Source: Takakia lepidozioides (taxonomy: Eukaryota > Plantae > Bryophyta). Taken from it: 64,000 nucleotides of DNA. The position numbers were made by a program, and so were the translations under genes. Location: NCBI GenBank assembly GCA_030704615.1, contig CM060733.1, forward strand, positions 44,330,001-44,394,000. Direction: 5' to 3'. Below, piece after piece: positions 32,201 through 64,000 of this stretch. The notes beneath the pieces were generated by a model. That model saw only the letters and a list, made by a program, of their open reading frames with translations, was not told where the DNA came from and ran no database searches. Within the stretch, counting starts at the first letter, position 1. The number at the start of each line of letters is the position of its first letter.

Positions 32201-35200
32201 GATTCCAGATCAACCTCGAGACGAGTACTTATAACTCTGCAAAATATCTTGCCAACAGCATTGAGGAGCGTGATGCCACGATAGTTCCCCGGGTCTTCTC
32301 TGTCACCCTTCTTATACAGATTGACAATGACCCCCTGTCGCCAGCGAAAGGGGATCATTTCAGTCTTCCAGATAAGGTTAAAGAGGAGAACTAGGGCCTC
32401 TATCATGGGATCGCCACCGTGCTTGATAAGCTCGTTGACTATGCCATCAGGACCACCTGCTTTATATCCATTTAGATGTTCAATTGCTTCCACAATCTCA
32501 GAAGAACTAATGGGAGCGTTGTAGGCTTTTGAAATATACTCCAGTTCATCAGGGCTGTTTTGAATCATAGGAACAGTTTTACCAACTGTGTCCTTCCATT
32601 CATCAGAGGACCCCTCACTGGTAGACCTAGAAGTTCTGCCAAGGATATTGTAGTGGGTTTCAAAGGTTTTGACAATGTCAACCGATGAAGTTACCACTGC
32701 ACCCTTAGTAGTCTTCAGCGCTTGTGGATATTTAGAAACAGCACACATGAAAACCGACTTCCACACCATACATAATCTCCACACCAACAAGCTTAAAAAA
32801 GGGTTTCAAATTGTTGCTGTAGAAAAGACTGACTGAAGGAGCATGGGTAGAAGGAAAACAGAAGTGAAACATGATGATCACTCACCGAGATCAAGATCGC
32901 GGTCCATGGCGTATTCTACCACAAAACCATGGTGTGTATCCAGAGACGACCCACCAACGTTCAGAAACAAAACTGCAATGTGTCAAGACAAGGCAGCCCT
33001 CAGTGAAAAGGGCGCAGAGACACAATGACTACTGACAAATAGATAATACAGCCACAAGACCAGGGCAACAGATGCAAGAATCCAAACTGCTACAGAAAAG
33101 GTTAAGTGGGGAGGTGAAGCACCAGCTGCTATAGGGTTAAGGTAGCCGATCATGAGATCTTGCAACATGGTCTCCATGCCAATGTCATCAAGCACTGCAC
33201 CATAGTTGTTCATCGTGTTGGGATGCATCACCTTCACTTTTGCCTCCTGGGCCCACCTCTCAAAGTGCTCCACCTGCGTACGGTACAACCAACCCATGTT
33301 ACCATTATTATGTCTCTGAGTGTGTCCTCCAAGGTCTGCATACTGACTCTGATATTACAGCCACATATAATATTCTTTTTCATGTCCTGGAGTCTATGTG
33401 CTAGCCATAACATACTGATCAGGACCATACCTCCTCCAACATCATGGAGCAAAACGAGGGTTTCAGCATATCGAAAGTGAAAACTCCTGGTGAATGCTCT
33501 GTCAATATCTCCCGCAGTGCAGCCTCTGATCCATCCTTCACAGCATCCAAGAACGAATTCACAAAGAAGTGCTCCGGATCCAGGGAGTAGAGCTCATCAT
33601 GCAGGGGCTGCAGAGTCAAACCTTTTCTTCAATTGTTGTGTCACAGAAGTCAAGAAAGCAAGTTACATCTATCTTTGTTTAACTGTGTCTGTTACTCTGA
33701 CCAATGCGAGCATTTTGGAAATGATAGTTCCCTTGCAACCATGCATAACACTCTCTGACTCTACATCCATCCTACACATACGCAAGTAACTTATGAACCA
33801 GAAATAAGGGGACCCACCAACCTGATAATTGTGTCGTATTCTCTCTCTGTACTCCCGGTGTTTCTGCAGGCACATATAACACCCGCCACCGCCTATTTCA
33901 CATTGTTCATCGATCCCCTTAAAACCAGACAGATTTGTGAGGTAAAATAAAACATACCTTACACTCTCCCTTTCTCAAAAGCAAAGCTAGCAGCAGGATT
34001 AGGAAAGCTCAATTATTATGGACCAACAGATGCTCTGACAAGGTACATAGCGATCTACTTGATCTTTGCAGATTTTCCTGTAAGTTTCGCATCAACATTT
34101 TCAATATGTAAACTCCACAACTTTAGGAGCTCTCTGGCACTTGCAAAGGAATTCTGGAGCTCCCACATCGCCACTCATAAGGCCCTCAGAAAAGAAACCT
34201 TTATATGGTCTCAAGATTGTTCAAAGTAGATTACTATTCTTGCAAAAGTCCACTTGGATTAATCTTTCACCAATTACTTCAAATACTGTATAAAGCACCA
34301 ATTGGAGGACCAACAGGCAATCATTCATAAACACAAGAAAGTCAATGCATGTTCATACACTCAAGCTGTTAGACCTCACACCTCACAGTCAAATAGCTAA
34401 AGACAGTAAGCATTAGAATCAGACACAAAAGTTTAGTGATTCCCTTGGCTCTCGAGCTGCATATACTAGGGTTAGGTCATTGCCAGCTTTTGGTGCAATG
34501 AAATAGACCCCAACAATAACCAAGCTCTTGGTTAAACCTCTTGATATGTACAAGGAGGCCCTTCAGATAAGACCTTGTGTTAAGGCAGAAAATTGAGCAA
34601 AAACCAAGTTGTTAAGTCTATGCAGAAAACTGCTCAGCCCACATTGCACTACCGATGTACACGTAGGTGTGTGCAACAAGGCTCGTGGAAAATTCTTTTG
34701 TGAAATAGAAATCCCGTAAAGCACTGAGCAAAAACGAAGAGGCCATGTCTTCAAAGGCTTCTCAGTAACAATATATCCTGACAAAAATGCCTCTGTTTTG
34801 TGAAAGAACCTATACCCTTCTCTTGTCCATGCTTGGAGTATACCTTCTCTCTGTTTCTGTTTCGCGCTTATTTCTTATGTTCAGACAGTATATACAACCA
34901 TTCAGTGGAAAGTAACTTAATTTTCAGCAATTAGGGCTTACCTTTGCACGCTCGCCATTGGGCCGATACTTTGCTAAAATGCGCTCAAGCAAAGCTAGCT
35001 TCTTCTCGCGTGAGGCACTCAGGTGATCTGAGGGTAGGTGCTGCTCCATCACGCTGTATAAGGTAGCTGGATATTCCAAATCCTCCATATCTTCGTAGCT
35101 CTCTGAAAGATGCCCTGTATTTGGGGACCTTTGCAGTCTAGGCACGCATTCCCCATCTCTTGCTGAGACATCTTCACGGGACGGTCTGCGGGCAAGGGAG

Positions 35201-35280
35201 GGTTGTCCATTACTGCTGGGAGGCTTCAACCTCTTCCTGCTACTGAAAGATTCCGTCGCTGTGGATGCTGATTCTTTCAT
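29286..35280 (-). CDS. 2OG-Fe(II) dioxygenase of the ICU11/CP2 (CUPULIFORMIS, PKHD-type hydroxylase) family, about 8 exons
   Basis: Exons: 35280-34942, ~33863-33822, 33607-33431, 33273-33123 (HPNTMNNYGAVLDD), 32972-32886 (LDTHHGFVVEY), 30371-30247 (FHVDDAEVTLNVCLG, HxD motif), 30093-29975 (HAGRHRHGA...RTNLILWCR), 29409-29286. The last exon end is uncertain. Confidence 0.88.
30456..32790 (-). mobile_element. 5'-truncated non-LTR retrotransposon (RTE/RTEX-like LINE) inside an intron of the dioxygenase gene
   Basis: RT motifs GNYRGITLL, QAGFRRNRGC, FLDVKKAYD, QGCTLSPLLF and FADD (31687-32790), YLGV and RPALEYGS (31273-31663), and C-terminal CPLC...HCP (30398-31243). Frameshifted, with no endonuclease domain seen. 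Confidence 0.9.
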
Positions 35281-36525
35281 CCTCCCATGCACCACTTCAC
35301 AGACTGCGAGAGGACAGATTACAAACAATGTCGATCACCGGAGGCGAGGAGGCGGCGGCAAGACAGAAGGGATTGAAAAAGAATCGGGGAAAAAAGGGAA
35401 GCCCACACCTTGGCAATGCACCAGAAACATAATACTTGCTTTAAAAAAGGAGTAGTTTTGCCCACACATGCAGAAGGGACAATTTACGCCATACCTGCCA
35501 AGCTGGGATCGCACAAATGCAGAGAGAGATGAGAGGCAGCGTCAACACAAGTGCAGCCTCGCTACATTTTTACAAATCAACAAAGCGCTCTACGAGACCC
35601 TGTCCCTGAGTGATCAGCGATCACCTCCTCTGAAAAACCCTCTCTTTGATGCACGATCGCTCGCACAATCTGAGAAGACCCGAACGATTCTGCACTGCAC
35701 AGCATCTGTGCAGGTGCCATAGCATCATCTGCTGACCACACGCGTGATCTGCTCTCGTGGGCCATCCCCTGACCTAACACACGCCTATAGGTCCCACCTT
35801 TGGTCTACCGAGCGCCTATAGGACCTCCTTCCACGGAAATACAGCTCACTGATCGCCTATAGGGGGTGATTGCCTGTAGGCCCCCTTTCCATGGCATTTC
35901 TCGAGAATTGTAGAGCTTACAATTAGTTCGCTGGTGAAATTCAACAGAATGTTGTTTGAGTGTAGAATGTAGAGCTGAGGTGAAATATTTTACACGCGTG
36001 CGTAGTTATGCTCTTGCTGATTTGATATGCGGAATGAGCCGCGTTTTGCTTGCGAAATTTATGCATCCATACCTTGATGATGATTTTCAATTTGATTCAA
36101 CAAATCTGGCTTTTCAATTCAATCAGTGGACATTTAGCCTAGTTCAATAGGTGGTCAAGCATTACTCACTAGTCAGGGAGTCATTGGCCAGCAATTTGGA
36201 GGATTTTGATCCTGCACCTCATCTTCACCACTCAGTCAAGCTTACGTATTCACCTCAACTTGCTACAGTCTAGCTTTAGAATCATCTAATAGTAGTGATA
36301 TTATGTACAGCAAATGAGGTCTGCCGAAGCTGCATTCATTCATTCACTCAGTCACTGGCTCAACCAGGCTATTGGCTAGCTCTTCAGAGTTAACAACAAA
36401 AGCACTGCATAAGTGGGGAATCATCTGTGGTGGAAACAGGGAGGCATTAGTGTGAGGCAGACCCAATTGAGGTCTCCCTTTCCATGTTTTGCCATAGCAA
36501 GAGTCTGATGAGGCGCAACAATGAT

Positions 36526-44860: not shown

Positions 44861-44970
44861 AACAATAGCAAACCTCTAACATGTTCTCTTCATGAGCATC
44901 GATTTAATCCTTCGAATTTCTGTTCCAATGAGGTTACATTTTTCATGAGCTATTTTTTTGGGGGGGGGGG

Positions 44971-45667
44971 TGTCGTGCGCATACATATCGCTACACAACT
45001 ACATCGCTGTCCAAAACCACACAACACATGTGCACACCACAGACTAGTATACCACTAGTCCACCACTAGTCCAGCCACTAGTCAACCACTAGGCTACAAC
45101 TAGTCAGTCACTAGGCTGCACTATGCTGCCACTATGGCAGTCACTAGTCCACACAATGATAAAGAAGAAGAATACAAGCACAAGCTCATGCGAGCTCACA
45201 AAGCTGAAGCATAAACTCATGCATATATAACCTCATCACTCAAATACAAGTCAAGCCAAGTGCACCCCACGCCATGGGGAATCCACACTACGGCGCCATA
45301 GCTAGGCGCGGTGAGGCTCAACTCGAGAAAGATGAGCCTCCCGCGCTTGCCGTGAAGATAACCACTCCAGGGCCTAAATCTGCCTTGACCCCTGGATTGA
45401 CACTTGGGCCAATCCCAAATGTCAATATGTAAAAGCTAGCTATTTCCTAGCTAGTTTCACACTAGTGGTAAAATAACTTGACAGCTGTCGTGCGCATACA
45501 TATCGCTACACAACTACATCGCTGTCCAAAACCACACAAACATGTGCACACCAACACTAGTATACCACTAGTACCACTAGTCCAGCCACTAGTCCAACCA
45601 CTAGGCTACAACTAGTCAGTCACTAGGCCACTATGCTGCCCACTATGGCAGTCACTAGTCCACACAA
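44971..45667 (-). repeat. 3' terminal repeat block A-(GC)-B-A
   Basis: A at 45486-45667, GC spacer at 45484-45485, B at 45157-45483 (327 bp), A at 44971-45156. A is rich in ACTAGT motifs. A PPT-like AGGGGGCGA (plus strand 45668-45676) directly precedes the inner A. Confidence 0.9.
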
Positions 45668-45925: not shown

Positions 45926-46068
45926 CTATCCCAAGCAGTGTGGACACAACCAATCTCCGTCAGGAACCTTCTCAAGAGGTGGTGTCAAGCATCCCATATG
46001 CCAACCCTTGAGCATCGATCACACACCAGCATGGTGGCTGCCCCTTTGGCAGACCCACAGAGCATGCA
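45926..46068 (-). CDS. PHD finger at the integrase C-terminus (frameshifted)
   Basis: Manual translation across a 1-nt shift gives CMLC-GSAKGAATMLV-CDRC-SRGW-HMGC-LTPPLEKVPDGDWL-CPHC-LG*, the canonical C4HC3 pattern with the conserved W. Not shown in the ORF track. Confidence 0.85.
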
Positions 46069-47300
46069 CCTCAAAACCTGCAGGTACCACTGCCAAGTTT
46101 GGGTCAACTCTGCCATCGACATTGGGAAGGTGACATGGCGCACAATTACGCACATGGTCCTTCCAAGTCATGCCATCCCGACCCTCCAAGATCAGGACCC
46201 CTGAGGGCAACACCTCTCGAACCCTCAGAATAACACGCCCTGCAGTAACATCCAGAGTCGTAGGAGCAGTCTGCTGCAAATAAACATAGTCACCAGGGCT
46301 AAACCTCCGAACCCCAGGACGATATCCTCCACCACGTATAGTGGCATACCTCAACGTATCACGGTGCTGTGCAATGGCAAGGTTCTCAAAAGCCATGGGC
46401 ATGACTTTCTTGAACAACTCTGCACGCTGATCACATGCACGTACCCACACGTCCGGATCGTCAAGGTTAAGGACTTGAGCAGTGTCCCTACGAATGGCTG
46501 CAGGCAAATCCGGCTCTCGGCCAAAGAGAAGGAAATATGGTGAGAAGGAGGCAAGTGATGCTTGTTTGCTGAACCTGTAGCCCATGGCTAACCAAGGAAC
46601 CTGAAGATCCCAATCTCCTAGGTGTCCCTTCTGCAAGCCATACTTGCGCAAACCCCTCTTCACCGTCTGAACAACTCTCTCTGCTAAGCCATCGGCCTCA
46701 GGATGATCCGAGAAGTGGTGCGTGGTCTATCAAGGCTTTATCACACAAAGCCTGAAACTCCCCAAGAACTCTCTCCCTTGGTCCGTGAGTACCTCAGCTG
46801 GAGCACCAAATCGGCTAAGCACACGATCCAAGAATGCATACGCAGCCCCCTCACTAGCCTTGTCAGGCAATGGAACCAACTCAATCCACTTGGAGAAGTG
46901 CTCCACCATCACCAACACATATCTGTGGTGGCGCATAGTCAGTGGCAACGGTCCTGCGAAGTCAAGACTCCACCTGTAGCCCAATCCCATGATTGGTAAA
47001 GGATGCAACTGTGGTGTAGGGGCGTTGAATGAAGCACGCACCCTGTCACACACCATGCACCTAGCCACGAACTGTTGCACCTCTGTATGCATACCACGCC
47101 ACCAATACTGCCCCTGCAGTAAACTGTGAGTGCGTCGCACTCCAAAATGCCCCAACTCCTCATGGGCATGCCGCACTAACCGTGCACGCTGTGTGGGGTG
47201 AGGCACAATCCTCACCCGACCATCCTCCCACACTCGAAGTAGGTGTATCCCCTCCCACTTGAACCTCTTGGCTCGTTGCAGGATCCGATCCCTCTCCCTG
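46069..47300 (-). CDS. Retroviral-type DDE integrase
   Basis: HEELGHFG...CMVC zinc site, WSLDFAGPL, VLTDQGREF, HPEADGLAER and SPYFLLFGREP. Frameshifted. Confidence 0.92.
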
Positions 47301-47304
47301 GCAG

Positions 47305-48900
47305 TCACATGGCTGCCGTGTCTCCCGTGCGGAGGTAGTCCAACACAGCCGAATCCTCATGTATATCTCTGGCACCACCTGGCTCATCACTAGCCTCAGG
47401 GTCCTCAGACACTCCGTCTACAGTCATCCCTGTTGTAGGTCCAACCTGACCTCCGATGCCAAGATACAAAAATGCAGATGCGTGCCATCCCGGCACCATC
47501 TCCTCGTCCGTCTCACCATGCCACCGAGCTCCAGTGTCATCCTGCTGGCTCATGCATGGATTGCGACTCAATCCATCCGCATCCCGATTGACCAAACCCG
47601 GTCGATGCACAACCTGAAAGTCATACTCCTGGAGTATAAGTGCCCACCGTGCAAGCTTCCCCGTAAGCTTGTCTGACTCCATCAACCACTTGAGTGGCTG
47701 GTGATCCGTGACAAGGGTGAAAAGATTGCCGTATAGATAGCACCTGAAGTGTGCCACGGCCCACACTGCAGCTAAGCACTCTCCCTCATATGAGCTGTAC
47801 TTAGCCTGCAGCGTTGTTCGAGCGGCTAGCGTAAGCCACTACGAACTCTCTTCCCTCATCATCCACCTGTGTGAGCACCGCTCCAAGCCCAGCATGCTCC
47901 AATCCGTATGCAGCTGAAAGGGACGCCCCCTGATAGGTCGTCTCAAGATAGGCGCCGAGGTCAACCTCGCCTTGAGCTCTTGAAAAGCTCGTTCTGCTCA
48001 TCTTCCCACTGCCACTCCTGGTCCACCTTGGTCAGCTTGGTTAGAGCCTTTGCAATGGTACTAAATCCCTTGACAAACCGTCTATAATAGTTTGCCAACC
48101 CCATGAAAGCTCGAACTCGGCTCACATCCGTGGGGCGTGGAATTTGTGCAATGGCCTCTACCTTAGTCTGCTGTACCCCCAATCCTCCAGGATATATCAT
48201 GTGACCCAGATACTCAATCTGGTTGTGGAAAAACTTGCACTTCCCCGGATGCAACTTCAATCCGTGCGCTCTCAAGCGCTCCAATACCACCTGAAGGTGT
48301 CTCTCATGCTCCTCCATCGTAACACTAAAGATGATGATGTCATCTATGTAGCACCGAGCAAAGTCCCCCTGCTAGAATCCTATCCATGACTCTCTGAAAC
48401 TCTGCAGGAGCATTCTTAAGCCCAAATGGTAAGAACCGCCACTGATATAGGCAATCCTTGCCGTGCTCATTGATCCCCCAGAATGCCGTCTTCTGCTTGT
48501 CCGCCTCCTTGATTGGCAACTGGTGATATCCGGATCGTAAATCCAAAGTGCTAAAGGCCTTAGCATGCCCGATGGCATCAAAGATCTCCTCTGGTGTTGG
48601 CATGGCATACTTATCGGACTTGGTCTGACGATTTACAGGCCGGTAATCACCGCACATACGTCTCTCCGTCCAATTGCCATAGACATCCTTCTTGGCTGGC
48701 ATCACTGTGGCTGAAGCATACTCTCCACCAGAGAGCTCCACCAAACCTGCCTCCCAGAGATCTTGAGTCCTCATCTGAATCAAAGACCTCTCCATGTCAC
48801 TGTATATATAGGGTCTCCGAAAGATTGGCGTGTCAGTGGCCAACTCAATACGGATCTCTTGACCCTTCAGTGCTCCCAAGTCCTTCAAACTGAAGGCAAA
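47305..48900 (-). CDS. Gypsy reverse transcriptase and RNase H
   Basis: RMCGDYRPVN, LDLRSGYHQL, LPFGLKNAPAEFQR, CYIDDIII (~48331-48354), YLGH, FMGLANYYRRFV, VAYASRS and TDHQPLKWL...NRDADGLSR. Several frameshifts. Confidence 0.95.
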
Positions 48901-49351
48901 AGCAATTCCTGTAAGCCCTCAGGAACCGCCGTATACGTCGTCTCTCCTCCGGTGACAATGGGTCCAATGTCAGGCTCCCAATTGTCCTCCGTAACTGCAA
49001 CCTTAAGTCCAGTGGGCTTAGAGGTAGAGGACGCGTCCAGTGGTTGCTATGTTGCAACCTCTTGAGCAGTACTCCCTGCCTGCTCAGTCAATGACAAGGC
49101 CTCATCCTGCCCATCATCTCATCCTTGAGGACCTCCTCAACCCGAGAAGAATCCCCAACCTCATCCATCACAGCCGCCTTGGCTGCCAACTCCCTCTGAA
49201 CCTCGAGCACCTCCCACGTGTGCCATGGATGCATGCACCCCGTGGTCCTCACATGCTCGCCCCCACTCACTGCCTGTACCGTCTCGGTAGGCAGAGAGAC
49301 CATTGAGGGAAGTGTACTCCGCACTCTGCGTTGCTCAGCCAGAGCCAAGCT

Positions 49352-50283
49352 GATAATCCAGGTCAAGCAATTGAGATCCATTGCTTGCCCCAACACTTGA
49401 CGACGTGATGCCTCAGAAAGAGACGACACCGCGTGGTACCAGTGGTAAAACCATTGCCCGCTCACGCTCGTCAGCATTAGGCTCCACTAACTGCTGCAAC
49501 TGAGCATCCCACAGGAGGCCAGGTCCACTATCCGGAAAGCATGCGATCCTGGGAAGCTGAGCAGTGTAGGTAATGCTGCTCGTGGTTGACCCACCTTGTT
49601 GACCACTGCCAAAGGCGAACGGTCATCGTGTCTCACACGCTGAGACTGCCTCCCTGTGTCCAGAATTATCCACTGTGAGATGTGCTGGCCGCTGCACCCC
49701 ATCAAATGCACGCTTGAGCAGTGCGGGTGGCATCAAGTTAGTCCACCATAGCCGTGGACGATGAGCCCGTGACCCCACTGTAGCTGCATCTAGCAACACT
49801 GCTGACCCAAGCCACGACCGGACTTGATGCACACTGGCCATCACCCTGGCCCGAGAATCGCCCATCAGTGGCACATTCTCCAAGATGTATGCTGGAGATA
49901 CAGCTTGATGAAGCTGCAAGTGGCGCAAAACCCGCACCATCTCCCAAAACAGACCCGACCTCGAGTCTCGCAATCCATTGCCATGCCCGGCTGATGAATG
50001 CCCTTGGCAGGGCCAACCTGCCACTACCAGATCAATGGAGCCAACCCGCTCCAAATCTGCCCCCAGCAACGAAATGTCTGCTGGCAAGGCCTGCTGATAT
50101 CCACGAATTGCAGACACCGACAACAACTCAGGGTACCGCTGCACCAACTGAGCAACATGGCGAAGTGAAACGCGTCGTGCAGTCTCATCCCTCTCCACAT
50201 ACAGGTAACGCCGAACTCGTACACCTGCTGTAACACAGCAGCCAATCCGTGCTGATCCCGCCAAACAAGTCCAGAAGACAAAT
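49352..50283 (-). CDS. Cytosine-5 DNA methyltransferase domain embedded in the pol region
   Basis: Motif I LLDLFGGIS, motif II YVERD, motif IV AGWPCQGHS (catalytic PC), GLRDSRSGLF, motif VI ILENV, motif VIII AHRPRLWWTN, motif IX-like EPNADERERAM and motif X LGQAMD, all in canonical order. Confidence 0.92.
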
Positions 50284-50759: not shown

Positions 50760-53195
50760 GACATCGTATGAGACGCGTCTGTCACAATGGCCTTGGCTCG
50801 CATCACTGAGCCATCTGTAGGGTGATCCGGCCGTAGTCTGATAGCCAACTCACGCCGTGTCATGCCCCGAGCCTGCTCCGATCCTCCCAGAGACGTCTGT
50901 ATCTGGAAAGGACAAGGCTCCATATCCGCCTCCGTGAGGCCCAAGCCTGCAATAGCAGCTCTGCCCAGCATCAATGGCTGAGCTCCCGAGTCCAACAAGA
51001 CCCGCAGTGGCCGGTACCTCTTGCCTGCCGGTCCACTCAAACAGAAAATGCCATCCTGGTTGTCTAACATGACAACTCCAGGTGTCACCATGGCGCGCTC
51101 AATGGCTGGCCTAGCTGGCAGCTCCATCAACCTGGCAGCTGCAGCTTGCCATGGCGCCGCCGTGGCAGTCTTGACCCTCAAATCCGAGGATCCCTCCGGC
51201 ACTACACCTCCCACTATCTCCGCAGAAGATGAAGTAACCTCCCCACTCTCACAGAGTGTAGCTGCCAGCCTGAACACCTCAGCTGGTCTTACCCCCGGCG
51301 TCGCAATCATGGTAGCCGAGAACAATGGAGCCTGGCACACAGATGTGGCCGCTCCTAGCAGCACACTAGCTGCCGTAGCCTTGGCAACACTAGGTAGTGG
51401 TGCTACCCGTGTAGCTCTCCCCAATGGCATAGTAACCTCCGCCTCGGTAACAGTCGGGCGAGAACTAGGTGCCATGGATGGCGTCGACACTGTCTCCGCC
51501 AATGTGAATGACTGAGGAAGCCTAGCCTGACGGCTTGCCTCCCCACGCTGTGGATCCAACTCCACCTCTGCACCTCGTGGCTCAGGAACTCGTGCTGCTC
51601 CTCGAGTCACGGCTGCAGCAGACTCCACCTGCACTAGTGGTAGTGCTGCTCCACACATGAATCCCATGCCTCCCATATCTCCTCCCTCAGGAGCAGGAGG
51701 TGGACCATCCGGCCTTAGAGCCGGTACCACCTGAGCTGTAGCCATGGCAGCGAGCCTCTGCTCTAGCTGCTGAAGCCGGTTGGCCATGCCTTGGTCAACA
51801 CCTGACCTCCGCGTCCTTGGCCATGTTGAGCTTGCCCTTGGCCTGCACCTCGTGGCTGGCCACCTCGTCCTCTCTGGGCTGCCACCTCGCCCCCGGCCAC
51901 CATTGTTCCCTTGGAACTGGCCTGGGCGCAACTCAGGATGCAAACCATAACACTGGGCCTCTCCATGCCCGTGCTTGCCACAATGCCCACACTGCAACTG
52001 TGCAGGCTGTGCATGTGCCGCCCTTTGCCTCCCTCTGGGCAATCCTTCTTGACATGGGGTCCTCCACATGTCCAGCACACCACATCCGCCCGTTGTTGGC
52101 CAGCAAATGAAGGGAGAGACCCCTGCATCTGAGGTCCTCTCTGCCCTTCCCTGAGCTTCACCTGAGCCCCCTTGTTGCCTTGAGCACGTTGAGGTAGTGG
52201 TTGGCTAGGAGCACCACTACCCCGTGGTGTCTCCTTAGCAAATCCCACCATGACCACTCGTTCCTCCACCATGTTGAGCTCTATCCGCTCTGCCAGCAAA
52301 AACACATTTGCTAAGGTGGGTTGGGCCGCTTGTAGGAGAGTTGCATCCCGCACCCTTCTCCTCAGCTCCTTGTCCAATATCCCATACCAGAATTGGACTG
52401 CCTGAGCTTCCGTAACCCCTTGGGTTACATTTATCAAGCGCCTCATGCGAGTGAAAGCCTCCCTCAAGCTCTCGGTCGGCTTCCGTTGGAACTCTTGCAA
52501 GCTCCGCAACTTCTCTGTCCTCACCCCTTGGTAGTTCCCTCTCAACTCTTCGAAGAACTCCACAACAGGGTTGAAGGCAGGCACGGGTGCTAGTGCTGGT
52601 GCGGTAGTGGCTTGGGTGGACGTCGTAGCTACTGTACCACAGTCCCACTGCTACTTGCTGAAGCTGCCGGTGCAGCGGCAGGTGTAGCCACTGCCCTCGT
52701 GGCTCTAGTGCCCCTAGTGATGGAGACATAGTCGGGTGACCAGTACATCCTCCACTCCTCGATCTCAACCTCATGCCCCGCCTGAACTCATGGTAATCAT
52801 CCATAGGCGGCCCCTCAAGGTGCTGAAACAGCCCTTCCATGCCATGAAAGGCGTAAATAGTTGTGGATTGCGCATTTGCTGCAAATCACACCAACTATCA
52901 AACTCTTGGATAAAATCATCCAACTCGATGGTGCCCACCGCCCCAGAGTACCTTCGTGGCCCCTTGGTAGCTCCATACATCTCCTCCATTGTGTCCCACA
53001 ACAATGGCAAAGAAACAACTTGCACCGCCGGTATGAGTCCTCCTGATTCACAATCCGAATCAGAACCTTCCGTAGAAGACACAGGAGGTGAAGGTGGCCT
53101 AAACCGCACACCTGTCTCGTGTACCCACTAGTATCGCTAGTGCTCGAACCGGCACTGTCCCCAGCAACTAGTGGCACCTCCGTGTTGACACTCAA
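50760..53195 (-). CDS. Gag (two zinc knuckles) and aspartic protease
   Basis: Gag-like VVEFFEELRGNYQGVRTEKLRSLQEFQRKPTESLREA, knuckles CWTCGGPHVKKDC and CGHCGKHGHGEAQC, and protease VLLDSGA (~50980-51000). Frameshifted. Confidence 0.88.
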
Positions 53196-53859
53196 CCGGT
53201 CATGAACATGTCCCTAACCCCCTCTCCACAAGGTAACCGGGTAGAGAACCTGTTGCGGCTTATGGTTTGGAATACTAAGTTTAACATAGCCTACACCTGT
53301 ACCTGCATCCACCGCAAGCACTCCTATGGTTGGCTGGTCATCACCTCCAACCTCACCACATGAGAAACAATGATGGTCTGGCTGGTCATCACCCCAGCCT
53401 CACCATCGACAGCATGCTCTAGGACTGGCCGGTGATCAAATCCGGACCAATCACCTATAAAAACAAGCGCCCACACAAAACTAGCATGGCGCACAGTCAA
53501 GCATGCAGGTATGGAGGGGATCCAAACACAAGAAATCAGAACGACAACTCCCCCACACCAAAAACAACTCCACGGTGTTGCTCCTGCAAGGACACCCCAG
53601 CCCAAACCCGGACTGACTCTTGCCTCCACCTACGGAAAGGTCTTGGCCTAATGAGAGGGTGGAAAACTACGAGGAAGAGAAGCTAAAGCAATGCCTAACC
53701 CCAGCATGCCCTCATCCCAACACTCTTCCTCTCCTCTCTTCCCTCACTTGCATGACCATGGGATATCATGAAGATACTCCTCAACCGCCCTCCACGAGCT
53801 TCAAAATTCGGCCTTCCAGACCACATGCCAGTCCTTAGGCAGTCCACCAGTGCCTCCAC

Positions 53860-54450
53860 GAGTCAGCACAGGTCCACAGGTCAACACGGGCCACCACAGA
53901 CCAGCACAGGCCCACACAGCTCACTGGTCACAGCCGTCACAGTCCCACAGGCCACTGGGCCACAGCCCCTCATAGCCCGTCACAGGCCACAGCCTGTGAC
54001 AGCCCGTCACAGCCCCACAGCACACACAAGCCCGTCACCACCTGTCCGTCACCACAGCTGTTCACAGCCCCACAGCCTCAGGCACGGGCCCACAGCCCGT
54101 CACAGCCCAAAGGCCTCAGGCACGGCCTGTCACAGCCCCTCACAGCCCCACAGGCCACGGCACCTGTCCCACAGGCCAACATGTCACAGGCCACAGCCTG
54201 TCACAGCCCGTCACAGCCCCACAGGCCACAGGCACATCACAGCCCCGCACAGCCGTCACAGCCCCACAGGCCACAGCCTGTCATAGCCCCTCACAGCCCA
54301 AGCCACGGGCACAGCCCAGCCCCTCACAGCCCGTTCAGGCACGGCCTGACACAGCCCGCCCGTCACAGCCCCAAAGGCCTCAGGCACGGCCTGTCACAGC
54401 CCCTCACAGCCCCTCACAGCCCCAAAGGCCTCCGTCACAGCCCTCACATG
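53860..54450 (+). repeat. Degenerate minisatellite (cacagccc / gtcacagccc units) in the retrotransposon 5' leader
   Basis: Dozens of cacagcc and cacaggcc units visible directly in the sequence. Confidence 0.9.
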
Positions 54451-55960
54451 GCCGCTCTGGCAGTTTAGCCATTTCTCCAAGGGGTTTAGCCACGCCAAGC
54501 TAGGGTTTGTGTCTCTTGGACTCTAGGCTTCTTTCCACCGAGCTATGGCGGCTGTGAAGAAATCAGCAAGGTATTCTTGCTCTTTCGGCTCCCACACACC
54601 ACCATAGTAGCCCTAAGCCATGAGGTGGTTGCCACAAACCAAGCCTTCTTTCTCACTTAGCCTCCCCAAACACGCCACTAAACTCAATGGCAAACAACCA
54701 AGCCCTGCTGGTTCCCAGCCCTTGTGAGCACTCATTCAAGCACTCTCCTTGGCCATAGCATCTGTTTTAGAGCCTATTCCAGCCCCCTACACCTGCTGCT
54801 TCAAGAGTTGCGCTCCCTTCAAGCTTGAAGTTGAAACCCCAACTCACATAGGCCCTACAAGTGCTTTTCTTTCACTCCAAGTGGAAACCAGCCCTAGACC
54901 TTCCGTTCTAGCTCTCTAAAGCTTGAAAACAAGAGCCTCAATGGGCTGAAGGCATGCTCCACACATGCCCCACACTCTCACCATAAGAGAATCAGCTCAT
55001 TTGCTTCATTTCTTGCACCCACAAACCTGAAAATACAAGCTTCAGCAGGCTGAAAGCATGCTCACATGCCCTATAGGGAAACCAGCCCCTTCCTTCCTTT
55101 CTTGCACTCCCACACCTGAAAGTGCAAGCCTTCACCAGGCTGATAGCATTCTCCACACATGCATTGCCCTCACATAATGGAAATCAGCCCTTCCCTCTTC
55201 CTTGCTTGCCCTCCAAGCTTGAAGATGGAAGCTTCAATGAGCTGAATACATGCTCCACACATGCAACCTCTTCACACAAGAGATATCAGCCCCCTATCTT
55301 GGCTCCTTGGCTCCTTGATGCTCTCTAAGACAAGACTAAGCACTCCACAGCCTTTGCCAACTCCTGAAACCCTAAGGCTTACATTTCCAGCCACAAGACA
55401 CTTCTTGTGGTGCAAGAGCTCTTCTTCCAAGCTCTGAAACCCTAGGTGCACATTCCATGGCCTTGCCGCACCTCTTAGCTCCTGTTCCAGCCCTGCTCTT
55501 GCCATGACAAGAGCCCTCTCAATGCTGAAGCTCGAGATTGAAACCCAATCTCACCATACTCCACAAAGTGCACTGATTTGCCCCAAGCCAAATCAGCCCT
55601 TTCGCTTGGTCTTGCAATCCTTCACACAATGAAAGCTCGCATTCCCAAGTCCAGTTCTCAGCTTTGCCACCAAAGCCACTATAACCTGCTCTTGACTGGT
55701 CCTCTTCCCAATCGTGCTTGCTCATGCATGTACACAATCTGAAACCATCAAGGTGCTCTGGAATTACCTGCAGCATGGTGCTTTCATCTCTGAAGCTGAA
55801 GATCGAATGCCAAGGTCTACCACCTCGTAACCCACATCGCCTCCGCTTCTAACAACCAAGAGCTCCACGGTGCTCCTTGCATAACAACTTGGTTTCTCTC
55901 ATTCTTAAGCAAAAACCACAAGTGCTACAACTAACTCGTATCTGGCACTCACAGATACGA

Positions 55961-55976
55961 GCTCATCTTTCTCGAG
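55961..55976 (-). promoter_or_regulatory. Primer-binding site complementary to the element's own LTR (self-priming type)
   Basis: Element-strand (A)CTCGAGAAAGATGAGC abuts the 5' repeat, lacks the TGG start expected for tRNA priming, and is the exact 17-nt reverse complement of an LTR segment (plus-strand 56141-56157). Confidence 0.8.
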
Positions 55977-56303
55977 TGATAAAGAAGAAGAATACAAGCA
56001 CAAGCTCATGCGAGCTCACAAAGCTGAAGCATAAACTCATGCATATATAACCTCATCACTCAAATACAAGTCAAGCCAAGTGCACCCCACGCCATGGGGA
56101 ATCCACACTACGGCGCCATAGCTAGGCGCGGTGAGGCTCAACTCGAGAAAGATGAGCCTCCCGCGCTCGCCGTGAAGATAACCACTCCAGGGCCTAAATC
56201 TGCCTTGACCCCTGGATTGACACTTGGGCCAATCCCAAATGTCAATATGTAAAAGCTAGCTATTTCCTAGCTAGTTTCACACTAGTGGTAAAATAACTTG
56301 ACA
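55977..56303 (-). repeat. 5' terminal repeat B (327 bp)
   Basis: Starts TGTCAAGTTA and ends TTTATCA. Matches 45157-45483 except for one substitution seen (ccgcgctCgc vs ccgcgctTgc). Confidence 0.95.
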
Positions 56304-57256
56304 GGGGATTTCTTCCTGTAATACCGATCCAATAGCTTAAAACTTCTCTTTCTTATACTACACTCTCCTCAATGAAGCGATAATGATTGTCAATATGTTT
56401 TGTGTGAGTACAATGAACTAGATCTTTTTTTGGTGTATATGGCTTTGATGTCAATGAACAATGGAGTGACCCATGGGTGTAACTTAGGGAAAGCCAATTT
56501 CGTAGCCAAATTACATGTTAACTCAATGTTGCCTGTAACAATGTCTCAGCCTCTACGATCGATTAAACAATTATCAACAACTGTCCGTTGCTTGCTACTA
56601 GTAATTATCGCACATTCTCGAGGTGGATCGTTGGTCATCCCGTTCGTCTGCCCAGTTTGCATCAATATGTATATCATTGTATTTAATTCACATAACACAC
56701 CGGAGCCTAGATGCCTTGAAAGTGCTGCAAAAGGAAGTCAACATGGAAACATACGTTGTGGAGGATTGTATTCCAAACATCCCTCTGGGCTGTCCGGTAA
56801 ATTGCAGTTGGTTTTTGGCAGTGCACAGAAGCAACTCTTTAAACTTCAACGAAAGTGTCATGACATCCTTGACATGCCCCTCTTTGAGCTAGAGGAGCTG
56901 GAGAAATGTGCTGGGCCGTAACACGCTTTAGCAAGTTAGAGGTGTCCTAAATTGGGGAGTGGTTTGCTCTTGCAGGTGGAATTGCACGTACAGTGCTTTA
57001 TGGGCAAGTTTTGGGCAACAATATAGAATGAAAGATGAACTTGCGTGATGCCATCAAAATCAAGTGTACTCTATAGATAGTTGTATACTTGATCACTATC
57101 TAAAGTCTGGGGTTGGTCACAAACTGACTCAATCAAGGTTGCATAAAATGACTCTCTAGGGACTAAACACATCGGCATCACGTCATGACTGCACGTCTTT
57201 GCATCATTTTACGTCATTATTCTTTGAATATTTTGGAATATTCATGTCATGTTACG

Positions 57257-60200
57257 TGTCAAGTTAAATAAACACAGTGTGAAACTAACTAGAATAAAGC
57301 TAGTTATTTGTATTTAACACTTGGATTTAGTTCAAGTGTTAAGTCAGGTGTCAAGTTTAGCTTGACACCTGAACCATCTTATCTTCACGAGAGCGTCAGT
57401 CGTGCGGCTCATCTCTCTCAAGTTGAGCCTGCACGACCGAGCTCCTTCACTGCTTAGAATCTTAGTGTGCTTATGAAGGGAGAATAGGATGTTGTGGGGT
57501 GGAGTCCCCATAGCTTGGGGTGCCCCTGGCTCGACTCTTAGTTTAACGAGTGATGGTGTTGTATTTCATGTCCTTGTGTCAACAGTGTGACTCTAGTTTC
57601 CAATCACTCGAGAGAGATGAGCTGTCTAGTTTTGGTAGTGCTAAGCTAGATAGATTTATTTTATGTTAGCACTATGTCGATGATATTTGAAGTAGGGAAA
57701 GCACAACTCGTAATGAGTGGTTAAGATAGAAGTCATTGTTGCTCGTTTCGTTTGTAGTCCGGTACGATGTTGTGCACGGGAGGCACGCAGGATGCCAAAT
57801 AAGAGGCGAGATGGAGGCTTGGACAGCCTCGTAGGCTCTGTATATACAAAGAAGGAGCTGCAGTTGTGCGGACAAATCAACTCGTAGTTGTTGACGGTAA
57901 ACTTCTTTTCTTGGGTAAGACTTGTTCTGTTTTGCCCGAGGCTTTGGACCTCGAGGTGGATTGTGGAGCATAATGATCGTGGAGTACACATGTTGAAGGC
58001 AGTCCCCATTATGAGAAGAGAGGGGGGGCTGTAGCGAAAACCGTGTGAAGTCTTTCTCTGATAACTACTTGCGAAGCATAGGGCGGGCATAGCTGGGAAC
58101 AGCGTCCAAATTGCACATATAAGTAAGCTGAGAGCTGGAGAACGGCGAGAGGTAGCTCGGAGGCTGGAGCCATGTTAAAAATGCTGAGCAGTTCGAGCAT
58201 TTGCACAATAATAAAGTACCGTGCAGAGAGGAAAGCATCAGGGCGTGACGCTTGGGGGACAGGCCCGTGATCAGACTTGTAGTTAGCTTGACATACACTT
58301 AGGGAGTGTGATGCCGTTGGCGCACTCGTGGACATCCTGTGTTTCGCAGACAATCAGCTACTGCATAAGGCAACTTCGACAAGCAGTAGGGCCTTGGTAG
58401 AGTCCAAATGGAAGCTTCTTCAGCGTTGGCGTGCCTACAAACAGTGGGCGATTTGTGCAAAACCTCGAGCTGGGGAACGTCAAGCAAATGCAGGATCCGT
58501 GAGTGGGGCAAAGGTGTCGGTGTGTGTGCCGTGTGATGAGCCATATTCGACCAGTTGAGCAGACGGGGGGCCACATGGCATGGAGCTGTGTGTTCTGGCT
58601 TATATTTCTCTCTACCATGTTCATACATGCGTTGCTGAGTTGAGACAGTGCCCTGTGAGAACTCCAGGGACGCAGCTTGAGCGTGCAAGCGGATGGGTAG
58701 CCGGCTGTGAATGATCATTGAAAGGTAAAGAAACAACAAGAGCAGACTATGGAAAGATAGCTTAAATGAAGCTTTGAAAGGAGGTTGAACTTGCTGAGCA
58801 GGTAGAGGAAAGAGGGGTACCATGGCAGCTGCACATCAGCGCGACGAGTAGGAGCTCGCGCCATGGCGCCTGCCTTAGCTAGCAAGTAAGCAAGGATCAG
58901 AGGGCAGATCTGCCACACCACCAGGCACCTTGCAGAGTGGTCGAGGCACTCATACTTCCGTGCACTGCAGCAGGGTTTCCACATAGTCGACGGGCTTGAA
59001 GAAAGGTTCCAGCTGGGGATCACTCAATTTGGACATTGATAAGTTGGTGTGCGGGGCAGGCTTTGCAGGAACTTGCTTGCCAGCTTTACTTCAATGAAAA
59101 TTGTGAGGGTGCCAAGGTGAGGTGTTGCTAAGGGGAAATGAGCTCCACGACCTCCATCGTCAAAACGGTTTGTGGTAGAAGACGGTTGGGATTCCAAAGC
59201 ATGGTGAGCTGTTGAACTCAAATGAAATGGAGGGGAACGGCAGGCACGTGGCCAGGGAACCTAGGAAACCATATAGAACTTAGGGAACCGGGGGACAGTT
59301 ACCAGATATTTTGGGTGTAACTTTGAATTTTAAATTTGAAAACCAAAAAAAAAAAAAAAAACCCTTTTGATCTAATTTAAATGATTTAGAGCCTAATTGG
59401 TCATATCTTTGTCAAATGGACTCCGTTTGACTCAGTTTTTGGGGGGATAGCTGTAGAAAGGGGAAATCTACCTATCTAAACTTTTTGGACTCTGCTAAAA
59501 ATCTATGGAATTTTTTGAGTGTGAGTGTGAGTGTGCTATGAAAGATCCACAATTCTGTTTCTAGAACCTGTTGTGGTCTATATGAGAGACAAATATGTGG
59601 ATGTCCTCCTTGTATGGCTGGGGGAAATGAGGACGTAATTGAAGGGCAGGTCTCTTCTCCTACCTGTGCACACAAGGGGACAAGATTTGTTTCTCAAGGA
59701 ACTCAGACTGATTTGAGTGGAGAGCAGTTGGACGAGTTTTGATTGCATACTGGGAGTCGACATTAGCAATAGACAACAAACTGTTGTAGTTGGCGTTGGG
59801 GCCTCAATATTACCTTGGGACAGGTCAAAACTCTGTTGGAGCAGCAGTTCTGCAGCTGTAGCTAAATCCAAAGTGGGTGAAAGCTAGGCTTGGAACACAG
59901 CCAAGACAGCCCCGGGACCAAGGTGTTCATCCACAAGGTCGTGGTGTACTGGAGCAAGGAGCATGAGCTGCACAAGTTTTGCAATCAACGTGGTTGCAGC
60001 CGAACACGTTCTACAACGAGGCACCACAACGGGGGGTTCTTAGACAAACACTTGTTCTGCTGAAGTAGATGCAGTCATATCGCAACGAGGACACCCGCAC
60101 CGCTCAAAGCTTCGAGTTGAGAACTGTCAGACCCTACATTTATTTTCTTTAGTATTCAGTGAGCGGGAGATAGGGGAGTATTGTTTTGTCTCTAACCTGG

Positions 60201-63200
60201 CAGAGAGAGGAGGATGGTTGGTTAGAGCGAGCTAACTATAGCTTGGATAAGGTTGTGGCAGTTTCTGAATAAGATTACCTCTAAACCTTACCATCATGCC
60301 AGATGAGGCACTTTAAGAGAGTCTGGCAGTTGTAGCATAGATCAAATTAAATCTTGCTTGGTCGACCTCTATTCTTTCCTTCCTCTCTTTACTATTTTCA
60401 TTACTTGTACTTGTAGTTGCCAAAGCCTCTTTTGGTGGAGGCCGTCAGTCCGGGTTTTTTGGGCTGGGATATTCTGCAGGAGCAGCACGGTGGAGGGATT
60501 TGGTGTGGGGGTGTTTGATGTTTTGGTTTCGGTGTTTGGATCCCCTTCCACACCTGCATGCTTGACTGTGCCCATGTTTGGTTTTGTGTTGGCACTTGCT
60601 TCATAGGGATTAGGCCGGATTTGCTCACCGGTCAATCCTAGCGTATGCTGTCGGGGTGAGGCTTGAGTGGTGACCAGTAGACCACCAGTGTTCCTTCTAT
60701 GGTGAGCTGGGTTTGATGACCAGCCAACCATAGGAGTTCTTGCGGTGGATGCGGTGCAGGTGCCCTTAGCCAGTGGGATATGACCCTTAATCGCAACAGG
60801 TGCTCACCCTGTCAACTATTAGAATTAGTACTAGAGCCTTATAGTGTCACATGCGGGAGGTGCGGGTTGTGAGTGTCATCACGGATTTCCCAAGGTTTTG
60901 AGGGGAGTACGGCTACAGGCATTAGCAGTGAGAGTGGGTTCACCAGACGGAGGTTGTCGTTTCAGACCACCTTCACCTCCATCCCTCATTAGTGCAGAGT
61001 CCAGACACAGACTCGGAGGCTTCATCAACAATTGTGGCAGTTTCATTCCCGCCATTGTTGTGGGACGACATGGAGGAGATGTATGGAGCTAACCAAGGGG
61101 CCTCGTAGGTATCTGGAGCTAGGGCACGATCGCTGGATGACTTTATCCAAGAGTTTGACAGCTGGTGTGATTTGCAGCAGATGCGCAATCCACAGCTGTT
61201 CACCACCCCATTCATGGCGTGGAAGGGACTGTTCCAGCATTTGGAAGGCCCGCCTATGGACGATTACCACGAGTTCAGGCGAGGACATGAAGCAGAGATT
61301 GAGGAGTGAAGGATGTATTGGTCCCTGACTACGTCTCCATTACTCGAGGCACACGCGACCAGTAGCTGCATCAGCACCAATATCTCCCACTGCAGCACTA
61401 GTAGTGGAACAAGTAGTGCCGTACTTTTGCAGGTGGTACCATCAAAAGGTGCCTACTACTTCTCCTGCCACGACTACAACACATGTGCCTAGATTCAACC
61501 CGGTGGTGGAGTTTCTTCCAGGAGTTGCGGACGAACTACCAAGGCGTACGGATAGAGAAGCTGCGAAGTTTGCAAGACTTCCAGCGCAAATCCAGTGAGA
61601 GCTTGCAAGAGGCCTACACTCGTATGAGGCGCTTGATAAGTGTGACCCAAGGGATTACTGAAGCTCAGACAATCCAGTTCTGGTATGGAATTTTGGACAA
61701 GGAGCTCAGGAGAAGGGTGCGGGATGCAACCCTGTTACAAGCAGCCCAACCCACATTAGCAGATATGTTATGCTGGCTGAGCGATTGACCTCAACATGGT
61801 GGAGGAGCGAGTTGTTACCATTGGATTTGGCAAGGACATGCCTGCACGGGCACAGTTGCCAGCCAACAGGCACAAGGGACTGCCCTCATACGTGGTCAGG
61901 GGGGCAAGGTTCCCAACCCAAATTCCATAGAGCTTGCAGGGGAACCTCAGGTGCATGAGGCCAGTAGCATCTTTTTGCAAGCCAACAACAACCAGGGGTG
62001 ATATGTTTTGGACATGTGGAGGACCCCATGTCAAGAAAGATTGCCCAGAGAGTGGCAAAAGGGCCGGCACAAGCACAGCCTGCACAGTTGCAGTGTGGGC
62101 ATTGTGGCAAGTATGGGCATGGAGATGCCCAGTGTTATGACTTGCACCCTGAGTTGCGGCAAGGCCAGTTCCAAGGGAACAATGGTGGCCGAGGGCAAGC
62201 TGGAGCACCTCAGAGAGGACGAGATGGTCAGGCACGAGGTGTAAGATGAGGGCAAGCATGGTATGGCTAAGGATGTGGAGGTCAAGGCGTTGACCAAGGC
62301 ATGGCCAACCGGCTTCAGCAACTAGAGCAAAGGCTTGCTGCCATGGCCACAGCTCAGGTGGTACCAGCTCCAGACCTGAGGGTCCACCTCATGTTCCTCC
62401 TCATCAGCGTCATCCCTGACGGAGGAGACATGGGAGGCATGGGATTTATGTGTGGGGCAGCACTACCACTAGTGCAGGTGGAGTCTGCTGCCGTCACTCA
62501 AGGAGCAGCACGATTTCCTGAGCCACGAGGTGCAGAGGTGGAGTTAGATCCATAGCGTGGGGAGGCAAGCCGTCAGGCTAGGTTGCCTTAATCATTCATC
62601 TTGGGGGAGACAGTGTCGACGACATCCATGGCACCTAGTTCTCGTCCGACCGATACAGAGGCCATTATTGTGCCATTTGGAAGAGCTACACCGTGCAGCA
62701 CTGACACCTGCTGCCAAGGCTAGTGCAGCCATGTGTTGTTGGGGGCAAGCCACCCTCTGTGTGTCAAGCCGCACTGTTCTCTGCAACCATGATTGCGACG
62801 CCGGGGGTAAGACCAGCTGTAGTTTTCAGACTAGCAGCAACACTCTACGAGGGTGGGGATGTCACCTCATCTTCTGCGGAGTTAGTGGAGGGTGTAGTGG
62901 CAGATGGATCCTCCGATTTGAGGGTCAACACTGCCACGGCTGTGCCATGGCAAGCTACACTACAGCTGCCAGGGTGACGGAGCTTGCCAGCTAGGCCAGC
63001 CTTTGAGCGCGCCATGGTGACACCTGGAGTTTCTTGTTAGACAACCAGGAGGGCATTTTCTCTTTGAGTGGAACCGGCAGGCAAAGGTACCGGCCACTGC
63101 GGGTCTTGTTGGACTCGGGAGCTCAGCCACTGATGTTTGGGCAGAGCTGCTATTGCAGGTTTGGGCCTCATGGAGGCGGATATGGAGCCTTGTCATTTCC

Positions 63201-64000
63201 AGATATAGACATCTCTGGGAGGATCAGAGCAGGCTCCGGGCATGACACGACGTGAGTTGGTCATTAGACTACAGCCGGATTATCCTATCGATGGCTCAGT
63301 AATGCGAGCCAAGGCCATTGTGACAGATGCAGTCTCTTATGATGTCATCGTTGGTGGGGCAATGTGTATATCCCATGGGCTTCACCCTGGATTTTTGGGA
63401 GGAGTCAACATCCTACAGGCCTGGATGGTAGTCAGGGAATGGTTGTCGTGTACAACTCCCTGTGACATTCATTGGGGGTGTTGCTGCTGCCACGAGGCGA
63501 TGCCCCCTAGCAGCCTTTACAGCTGCAGTTAGTTGGCCTCGAGAGTTGCTGGAGGGCAATGCCCATCAGAGGATGTGCCACCTCCAGCAAAGCAAGATGA
63601 CATGCATGGTACGCGGAGTTGCCTGACATGGTTGCTCACACTCCATTGTGGGGTACGAACAAGGATTTGCAGCAGGCTGCTGATAGACGGGTGCAACAAG
63701 CCTGGGTAGAGGCCTTTGTACCGTCAGGAGAGGAGGAGAGTGCGGTGATTGCACCAGGACCACCTCAGTTGTCGCCATTGGACACCACACCTCTTGTGTG
63801 GCAGTGCCCGGATGAAGACATATGTCTTTTGGACTTGTTTGGCGGGATTAGCATTGGATTGGCTGCAGTGCTGCAGGCAGGTGTACGAGTTCGACGTTAC
63901 CTATATGTGGAGAGGGATGAGACTGCACGATGCGTCTCACTGCGCCATGTTGCTCAGTTGGTGCAGCAGTACTACTCTGTTTGTTGTCAGTGTCTGCAGT
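57257..64000 (+). mobile_element. Second, diverged member of the DNMT-Gypsy family (5' part; runs off the window end)
   Basis: B-type repeat at 57257-57606 (TGTCAAGTTA...CAATCA), PBS at 57607-57622, leader homology from ~60425, gag from ~60900 (NYQGVRIEKLRSLQDFQRK, two knuckles), protease VLLDSGA at ~63105, and DNMT motifs I-II (ICLLDLFGGISIG, YLYVERD) at ~63820-63920. Has stops and frameshifts. Confidence 0.9.

Follow-up and report, generated by a model that had tools for sequence, protein, structure and literature searches.

A PHD finger at the integrase end of a Gypsy-DNMT3 retrotransposon in Takakia lepidozioides, a candidate tether to histone H3

The window analysed here, 64,000 nucleotides of the Takakia lepidozioides genome (contig CM060733.1, positions 44,330,001 to 44,394,000), holds a Gypsy-DNMT3 retrotransposon whose integrase ends in a complete PHD finger. 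I propose that the finger probably ties the integrase to nucleosomes by gripping residues A1-R2 at the free N-terminus of H3, and I predict that it prefers H3 unmethylated at K4; to this reading I would give a probability of about 0.55. According to this proposal, a product that runs from reverse transcriptase (RT) through RNase H (RH) and integrase (INT) to the PHD finger would arise by occasional readthrough of a stop behind the methylase. The protease would release its parts, leaving the finger attached to the integrase, much as chromoviruses keep their chromodomain, and binding by the finger would steer new copies away from promoters marked by H3K4me3. The methylase would be a separate product, one that acts on the cDNA or on the new copy and has no need of the finger.

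The element and its finger in the window

The element runs from 56303 to 44971 on the minus strand, in the order A1, long leader, gag, protease (PR), DNMT, RT, RNase H, integrase, PHD, B1, A2, B2. The Ty3/Gypsy order PR-RT-RH-INT, with a DDE integrase, is confirmed. Its parts are these, with the evidence for each in brackets:

55977..56303, minus strand: repeat A1, the left element end, beginning TGTC (repeat alignment)
55961..55976, minus strand: candidate self-priming site, 16 nt directly behind A1, complementary to 56142-56157 inside A1 (complementarity, fold)
50837..53127, minus strand: gag (zinc knuckle) and aspartic protease (Pfam matches below cut-off)
49300..50160, minus strand: DNMT3-like cytosine methyltransferase carrying the motifs PC, ENV and RxR, limits approximate (Pfam, motifs, solved-structure matches)
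49041..49049, minus strand: in-frame stop and then CAA CCA (fitting CAR-YYA), between methylase and RT, likely leaky (locus comparison, TMV signal)
47620..48918, minus strand: reverse transcriptase and RNase H, their coding sequence spread here over several frames (Pfam, contigs)
46069..47200, minus strand: DDE integrase, with H2C2 zinc domain, catalytic core, long helix and an SH3-like C-terminal beta domain before the PHD (Pfam, model of the relative P0001, fold search)
45926..46068, minus strand: C4HC3 PHD finger and stop codon, the last integrase domain, broken near 46073 and 46005 (ORF frames, Pfam, contigs, solved-structure matches)
45486..45667, minus strand: repeat B1, with a purine-rich tract before it (repeat alignment)
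45157..45483, minus strand: repeat A2, identical to A1 but for 1 of 328 aligned nt (repeat alignment)
44971..45156, minus strand: repeat B2, the right element end, ending GACA (repeat alignment)

The single difference between A1 and A2 marks the copy as young. The element, which belongs to the Gypsy-DNMT3 kind, is young and high-copy and is flanked by a 4-nt target duplication (44967-44970 and 56304-56307). Its DNMT3-like domain lies intronless within pol, has the catalytic motifs, and matches Pfam PF00145 (E 1e-12), its best solved matches being DNMT3A and then DNMT3B. Observed/expected CpG in the element (0.53) is not below that of the rest of the window (0.44) and gives no sign of self-methylation. 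Elements of this kind have been described as KnitGypsy-Dnmt3 of Klebsormidium nitens, a Gypsy with Dnmt3 in pol and a DIRS repeat structure (de Mendoza 2018, PMC5890265), and as "Gypsy-DNMT3" of streptophytes (bioRxiv 10.64898/2026.05.21.726589). The window element shares with them the Ty3/Gypsy pol, the DNMT3-like domain and a DIRS-like arrangement (A-coding-B-A-B), and Klebsormidium proteins are among its homologues. The layout of the kind is gag-PR-DNMT3-RT-RH-INT, with split repeats A..B-A-B. Compared with KnitGypsy-Dnmt3, the window element has an in-frame stop between DNMT and RT, and its chlorophyte relatives have the DNMT between RNase H and integrase.

The finger is broken in this copy. 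All eight ligands of a C4HC3 PHD finger are present at 46068-45929 (minus strand), within limits set by the start of the Cys1 codon (46068) and the end of the stop codon (45926), and they are spread over two frames. Cys1 to Cys4 lie in the frame of ORF 45988-46167, and His5 to Cys8 in that of the integrase C-terminal ORF (46022-46726 plus 45929-46018). The frame breaks at about 46073 and about 46005, and the net shift cancels. The Pfam PHD profile matches the two halves separately, the first (profile 1-21) with E 0.026, below the cut-off, and the second (profile 22-47) with E 9e-6 and 26.1 bits, above it; intact relatives score 30-47 bits against a cut-off of 24. The canonical spacing of its ligands and its core Trp make the window finger a PHD (PF00628).

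Public contigs indicate how the breaks may be understood. In Logan contigs from 4 runs in 3 studies, one-base indels of opposite sign occur at 46073 and at 46004/46006, each in 4/4 runs among the best-supported matches listed, as a part of the depth and not all of it. One contig of 136 nt is 46018-46154 with a single gap as its sole difference, and among the matches listed more indels are found at the element's other frame switches. With one-base indels in public contigs that cancel each of the two breaks, the frame of the family is open across the finger, and the breaks in the window copy would be assembly errors or private decay; no contig spans the element. So many indels in so young a copy suggest assembly errors in a high-copy repeat. 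The initial annotation had described a complete C4HC3 finger directly after the integrase, masked by frameshifts, and this description is borne out to the exact nucleotide, the contigs adding their cancelling indels.

The leader of the element contains a tract of short-unit repeats (53750-54500) and a roughly 100-nt unit present three times (54880-55290). About 950 nt away from the element, and in the opposite direction, lies a second related one (57257-64000, plus strand), about 80% identical over gag-PR-DNMT and truncated by the end of the window.

The integrase tail among relatives

The integrase C-terminal ORF, which has no PHD in frame, was used as a query and found 216 proteins, the best 120 of which were examined. 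PF00628 is present in 114 of these 120. A chromodomain (PF00385) behind the integrase is present in 0 of the best 120, as against 67 of 68 in the chromovirus search. Three of the six proteins that have no PHD stop before the slot, and the other three (P0021, P0037, P0038) fill it with other sequence. Where integrase core and PHD could both be placed, the finger begins 210-225 residues behind the core in 111 of 112 proteins. Named homologues come from Marchantia (81% identical), Calypogeia, Klebsormidium, Haematococcus, Pleodorina and Chromochloris, and the window element is closest to liverwort proteins. An alignment of 49 proteins (P0001 and relatives) has six of the eight ligands invariant (C561, C564, H569, C572, C587 and C590) along with G567. 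The model of P0001 runs from integrase core through a long helix, an SH3-like beta domain and a linker of 20 residues to a confident PHD finger (pLDDT 82-91); a fold search with this model returned integrases alone, none informative on the PHD. Judged by sequence, the finger is the normal integrase tail of the family, conserved across its green-lineage relatives. The earlier claim that it occupies the chromodomain site of chromoviruses thus stands, in the sense that it is an in-frame C-terminal integrase domain of the family.

It might be argued that the finger is an accident of frameshifts, or that it is out of frame in the family at large. The broken finger of the window copy invites the thought, as does the count of metagenome loci: in only 33 of 64 testable ones is the finger both complete and continuous in frame with the end of the integrase (78 loci in all, redundant and mostly from one decayed family). 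Those loci are, however, decayed throughout, with stops in other domains too, and PHD fingers in 114 of the best 120 homologues, together with the cancelling indels of the contigs, refute the idea, in which I place almost no belief. The annotation had itself allowed that the finger might prove out of frame with the integrase; intact natural relatives have it complete and in frame after the integrase.

There are some irregularities in the clade. P0268, a basal member, has its PHD between RNase H and integrase and not at the C-terminus. Weak matches to D12 adenine methylase follow the PHD in P0055 and P0080 (E 0.003, below cut-off), and G-patch matches precede the integrase in some algal-type members (P0059, P0073, P0115).

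An RT-RH tree was built from 20 chromodomain-bearing elements (of 68 found), 20 members of the clade and 30 other Gypsy units as outgroups. A 50%-cluster search had returned many proteins with several RTs of other Gypsy groups, which were used as outgroups alone. It is a quick tree, made without a mixture model or seed-plant chromoviruses and with the window represented by relatives. In it the PHD clade has an SH-aLRT of 91, which rises to 98 when P0268 is left out, and falls outside the chromoviruses, themselves a clade with 94; P0112, from K. nitens, stands among the closest relatives of the window element. Placing the PHD clade with the alga-containing subgroup of chromoviruses, a group chosen after the tree was viewed, is rejected (p 2.4e-7); making it the sister of all chromoviruses, as it would be had the chromodomain been replaced at the base, is not (AU p 0.46). 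On this sampling the element is not a chromovirus with a swapped domain: the PHD clade is not nested in the 20 sampled chromoviruses, and the chromodomain is absent from all 120 homologues examined. As far as sampled, the clade is separate from chromoviruses.

Chromodomains are the textbook example of chromatin reading by retrotransposons. A second reader fixed to the integrase, in a clade that extends across chlorophytes, charophytes and liverworts and has kept DNMT3, would offer a clean test of steering by PHD fingers and of cooperation between reader and writer. The material for such a test includes intact natural fingers, members without DNMT (P0089, P0117) and a very high-copy young family. 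The likeness to chromoviruses consists of a chromatin-reader domain at the integrase C-terminus and a candidate self-priming site such as Tcn1 and Tf1/Sushi have (PMC6317226, PMC6673714). Unlike chromoviruses, the window element has a PHD in place of the chromodomain, no SH3_Tf2-1 match, a separate RT-RH clade, split repeats and a DNMT.

Neither of the main ingredients is new. PHD fingers are reported in the retroelements REM1, CR1-like and Chlamys and in cnidarian PYGO-type fusions, and as a retroelement accessory domain they are termed widespread and common in Chlamydomonas (PMC6673714, PMC8557442, bioRxiv 2021.11.30.470311). A 2026 preprint describes elements that combine a chromodomain with methylases. 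DNMT3 in Gypsy and PHD in retrotransposons are thus already published, which limits the surprise. What sets the present clade apart from other PHD-bearing transposons is that its PHD is fixed at the end of a Gypsy integrase and is of a type without a methyl-K4 cage. A literature search turned up no description of Gypsy-DNMT3 integrases that end in a PHD, though figures, supplements and subscription works or theses may show it. In PMC5890265 the term "PHD" is found neither in the main text nor in three supplementary files; Figure 4c may show the domain.

What the finger may read, and how it stands to the methylase

The best solved matches of the finger are CHD4, PHF21A/BHC80, KDM5A/B PHD1, WSTF, ATXR5, BAZ2A/B, DPF, MOZ, UHRF1, AIRE and KMT2C/D. 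Those of ATXR5, BAZ2A/B, KDM5 PHD1, UHRF1, AIRE and BHC80 are reported to be readers of unmodified H3. Residues were counted in 103 of the 114 fingers, with 11 outside the pattern left out.

The Trp of a methyl-K4 cage stands two places before the His of a PHD finger. Not one of the 103 fingers has Trp there (98 have Gly), and none of the 103 has an aromatic residue before Cys1. The Trp that immediately precedes the His corresponds in alignment to the core Tyr/Phe found in CHD4 and PHF21A. The fingers therefore do not possess the aromatic cage with conserved Trp by which a reader of H3K4me3 is known. They do possess the two features of a reader of unmodified H3, an Asp after Cys3 for R2 and a pocket for A1. 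The Asp is found in 99 of 103, at the position that binds R2 in UHRF1 (PMC3214078), and the pocket, P-x-G-x-W, has its P in 94, its G in 88 and its W in 92. With the methyl-K4 cage absent and the A1/R2 contacts kept, the integrase is likely tethered to H3 tails unmethylated at K4.

Binding of K4me0 is reported to be strengthened by acidic residues in front of strand beta-1 and of Cys1 (PMC5415848). At least one is present in the five places before beta-1 in 76 of 103 fingers and none in 27; the window finger and its closest relatives have no acids there or before Cys1. Its predicted binding to H3 may for this reason be weak or K4-blind. My prediction is that it binds A1-R2 of H3 and modestly prefers K4 unmethylated.

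If K4 counted for nothing, the finger would be a plain nucleosome anchor, one that holds A1-R2 at any state of K4 and prolongs residence on chromatin with no choice of chromatin type. The R2 aspartate and A1 pocket are kept and the K4-reading acids are not fixed, as an anchor would have it, and the UHRF1 PHD is reported to work in this manner (PMC3214078). Yet three quarters or so of the fingers do have an acid in place (the 76 just mentioned), and methylation of K4 weakens binding in several such fingers (PMC5415848). I consider the anchor unlikely, though worth keeping in mind. A role away from histones is improbable: the finger might bind another protein of host or element, or nucleic acid, or might steady the integrase multimer. 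Its binding face is of low charge in the land-plant branch, and in P0268 it stands before the integrase, as would suit such roles, but, the zinc ligands aside, it is the H3 A1/R2 site whose residues are best kept.

The preferred reading, a tether to H3 tails, has still to be set against a closer partnership with the methylase. In DNMT3 enzymes the ADD domain, a GATA-like finger and a PHD-like finger beside the catalytic domain, prefers H3K4me0. The initial annotation had held that the element encodes both a chromatin reader and a DNA methylase. The pairing is real, in that a likely histone reader accompanies the DNMT3-like domain, and having such a reader and a DNMT3-like catalytic domain in one genetic unit recalls DNMT3A/B. 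The annotation went further and likened the pair to the ADD-plus-catalytic arrangement; the PHD would then sense H3K4me0 and recruit or activate the element's DNMT3-like enzyme, tying target choice to methylation of the new copy.

Several observations agree with this idea. The best solved matches of the methylase are DNMT3A/B, the predicted preference for K4me0 equals that of ADD, and finger and methylase occur together through the clade. The PHD is present in 54 of the 57 proteins that span RT to integrase, the remaining 3 stopping short of it, and the DNMT in 36; the DNMT lies between RNase H and integrase in 32, where DNMT, INT and PHD are adjacent, and before RT in 4. In 19 the slot is out of view, for the proteins begin shortly before RT. 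The arrangement in the window speaks against it. In the window's branch the DNMT precedes RT and terminates at a conserved stop, so that finger and methylase are about 1,100 codons apart, with RT, RNase H, integrase and the stop between them. The finger is, moreover, a canonical C4HC3 finger on the integrase and not an ADD, of which Pfam found no match in 23 relatives. The methylase has moved between branches, its position (before RT or between RNase H and integrase) following the RT-RH tree, and in P0089 and P0117, which span protease to PHD, it is absent and the PHD kept. The DNMT of KnitGypsy had no de novo activity in yeast, a result its authors call inconclusive (PMC5890265). The ADD-plus-catalytic mechanism is thus not borne out, and such coupling is a weak and rather improbable proposition in this element; in the chlorophyte branch, with DNMT, INT and PHD adjacent, it is conceivable.

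Chlorophyte-type relatives (P0042, P0056, P0057, P0221 and others) are the ones with the DNMT between RNase H and integrase. Their catalytic loop is mostly GWEC in place of PC, with EC in 40 of 61 domains.

In 29 of 33 loci of the window's branch (24 TAG, 5 TAA), and in the window itself (49049), RT is preceded at a distance of 38-45 codons by an in-frame stop followed by CA(A/G). CAR YYA is the readthrough signal of TMV (PMC2754532); the window and locus L020 fit it, and most loci, with stop-CAA-CCC, fit it in part. The literature search found nothing on CARYYA with a retrotransposon, and nothing, within the limits given above, on the chlorophyte DNMT between RNase H and integrase or on a stop before RT. 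With the stop conserved, most of the DNMT would be produced unattached to RT-INT-PHD, and the finger keeps to the integrase wherever the methylase goes. Taken together, these favour a role of the finger in targeting over one like that of ADD. The stop, and the repeat junctions considered below, open to test both the dosage of the methylase and the way in which these elements insert.

Repeats, priming and insertion

The A..B-A-B layout is found in the window and in metagenome loci L014, L042 and L053, the three that hold both ends. Outside A1 and B2 all four full copies have 4-nt target duplications (CCCC, TCTC, AAGG, CATA), the first of them weak because it lies inside a run of C. The B1|A2 junction is a conserved palindrome, GACA-GC-TGTC, and the A2|B2 joint varies among copies. 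Since a purine tract precedes B, B-A repeats at both ends are what ordinary reverse transcription would yield. The inserted form, I infer, is such a product with its two ends joined, opened again at the palindromic B|A junction. Split repeats, a DDE integrase and 4-nt duplications fit the insertion of a two-LTR circle opened inside one LTR.

The 16-nt complementarity between the flank of A1 and the interior of A compares with 11 nt as the best of 1000 shuffles (fold z -8.9). A second copy in the window (57407 with 57610) has matching changes in both arms, and L042 has a different 17-mer, likewise complementary; no complementary priming stretch is found in L014 or L053. This suggests possible self-priming as described in Tf1/Sushi and Tcn1 (PMC6317226).

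One may imagine the whole as an old green-lineage Gypsy clade with a chromatin programme of its own. A PHD-tipped integrase would open a two-LTR circle inside one LTR, dock on H3K4-unmethylated nucleosomes and deliver a copy methylated by the element's own DNMT3, made in excess by way of the leaky stop; in chlorophytes, DNMT, integrase and PHD on one chain would form a reader-writer machine of the ADD sort. That all of this holds together is doubtful.

In L053 one full copy is apparently nested in another Gypsy element (416-2525 and 13176-13773), and in L040 (4589-5383) a chromodomain-bearing element lies beside another copy; with no control, these neighbourhoods are no evidence on targeting. 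Elsewhere in the window, ORF 34927-35283 (minus strand) looks like the first exon of a plant host gene of the 2OG-Fe(II) oxygenase family; an Atlas search gave only scores <0.9, which leaves the likeness to an oxygenase unsupported. Arrays of a 303-nt unit, with shared flanking repeats, occur in three places, at 1-1415, at 25353-26864 and, inverted, at 8515-9653.
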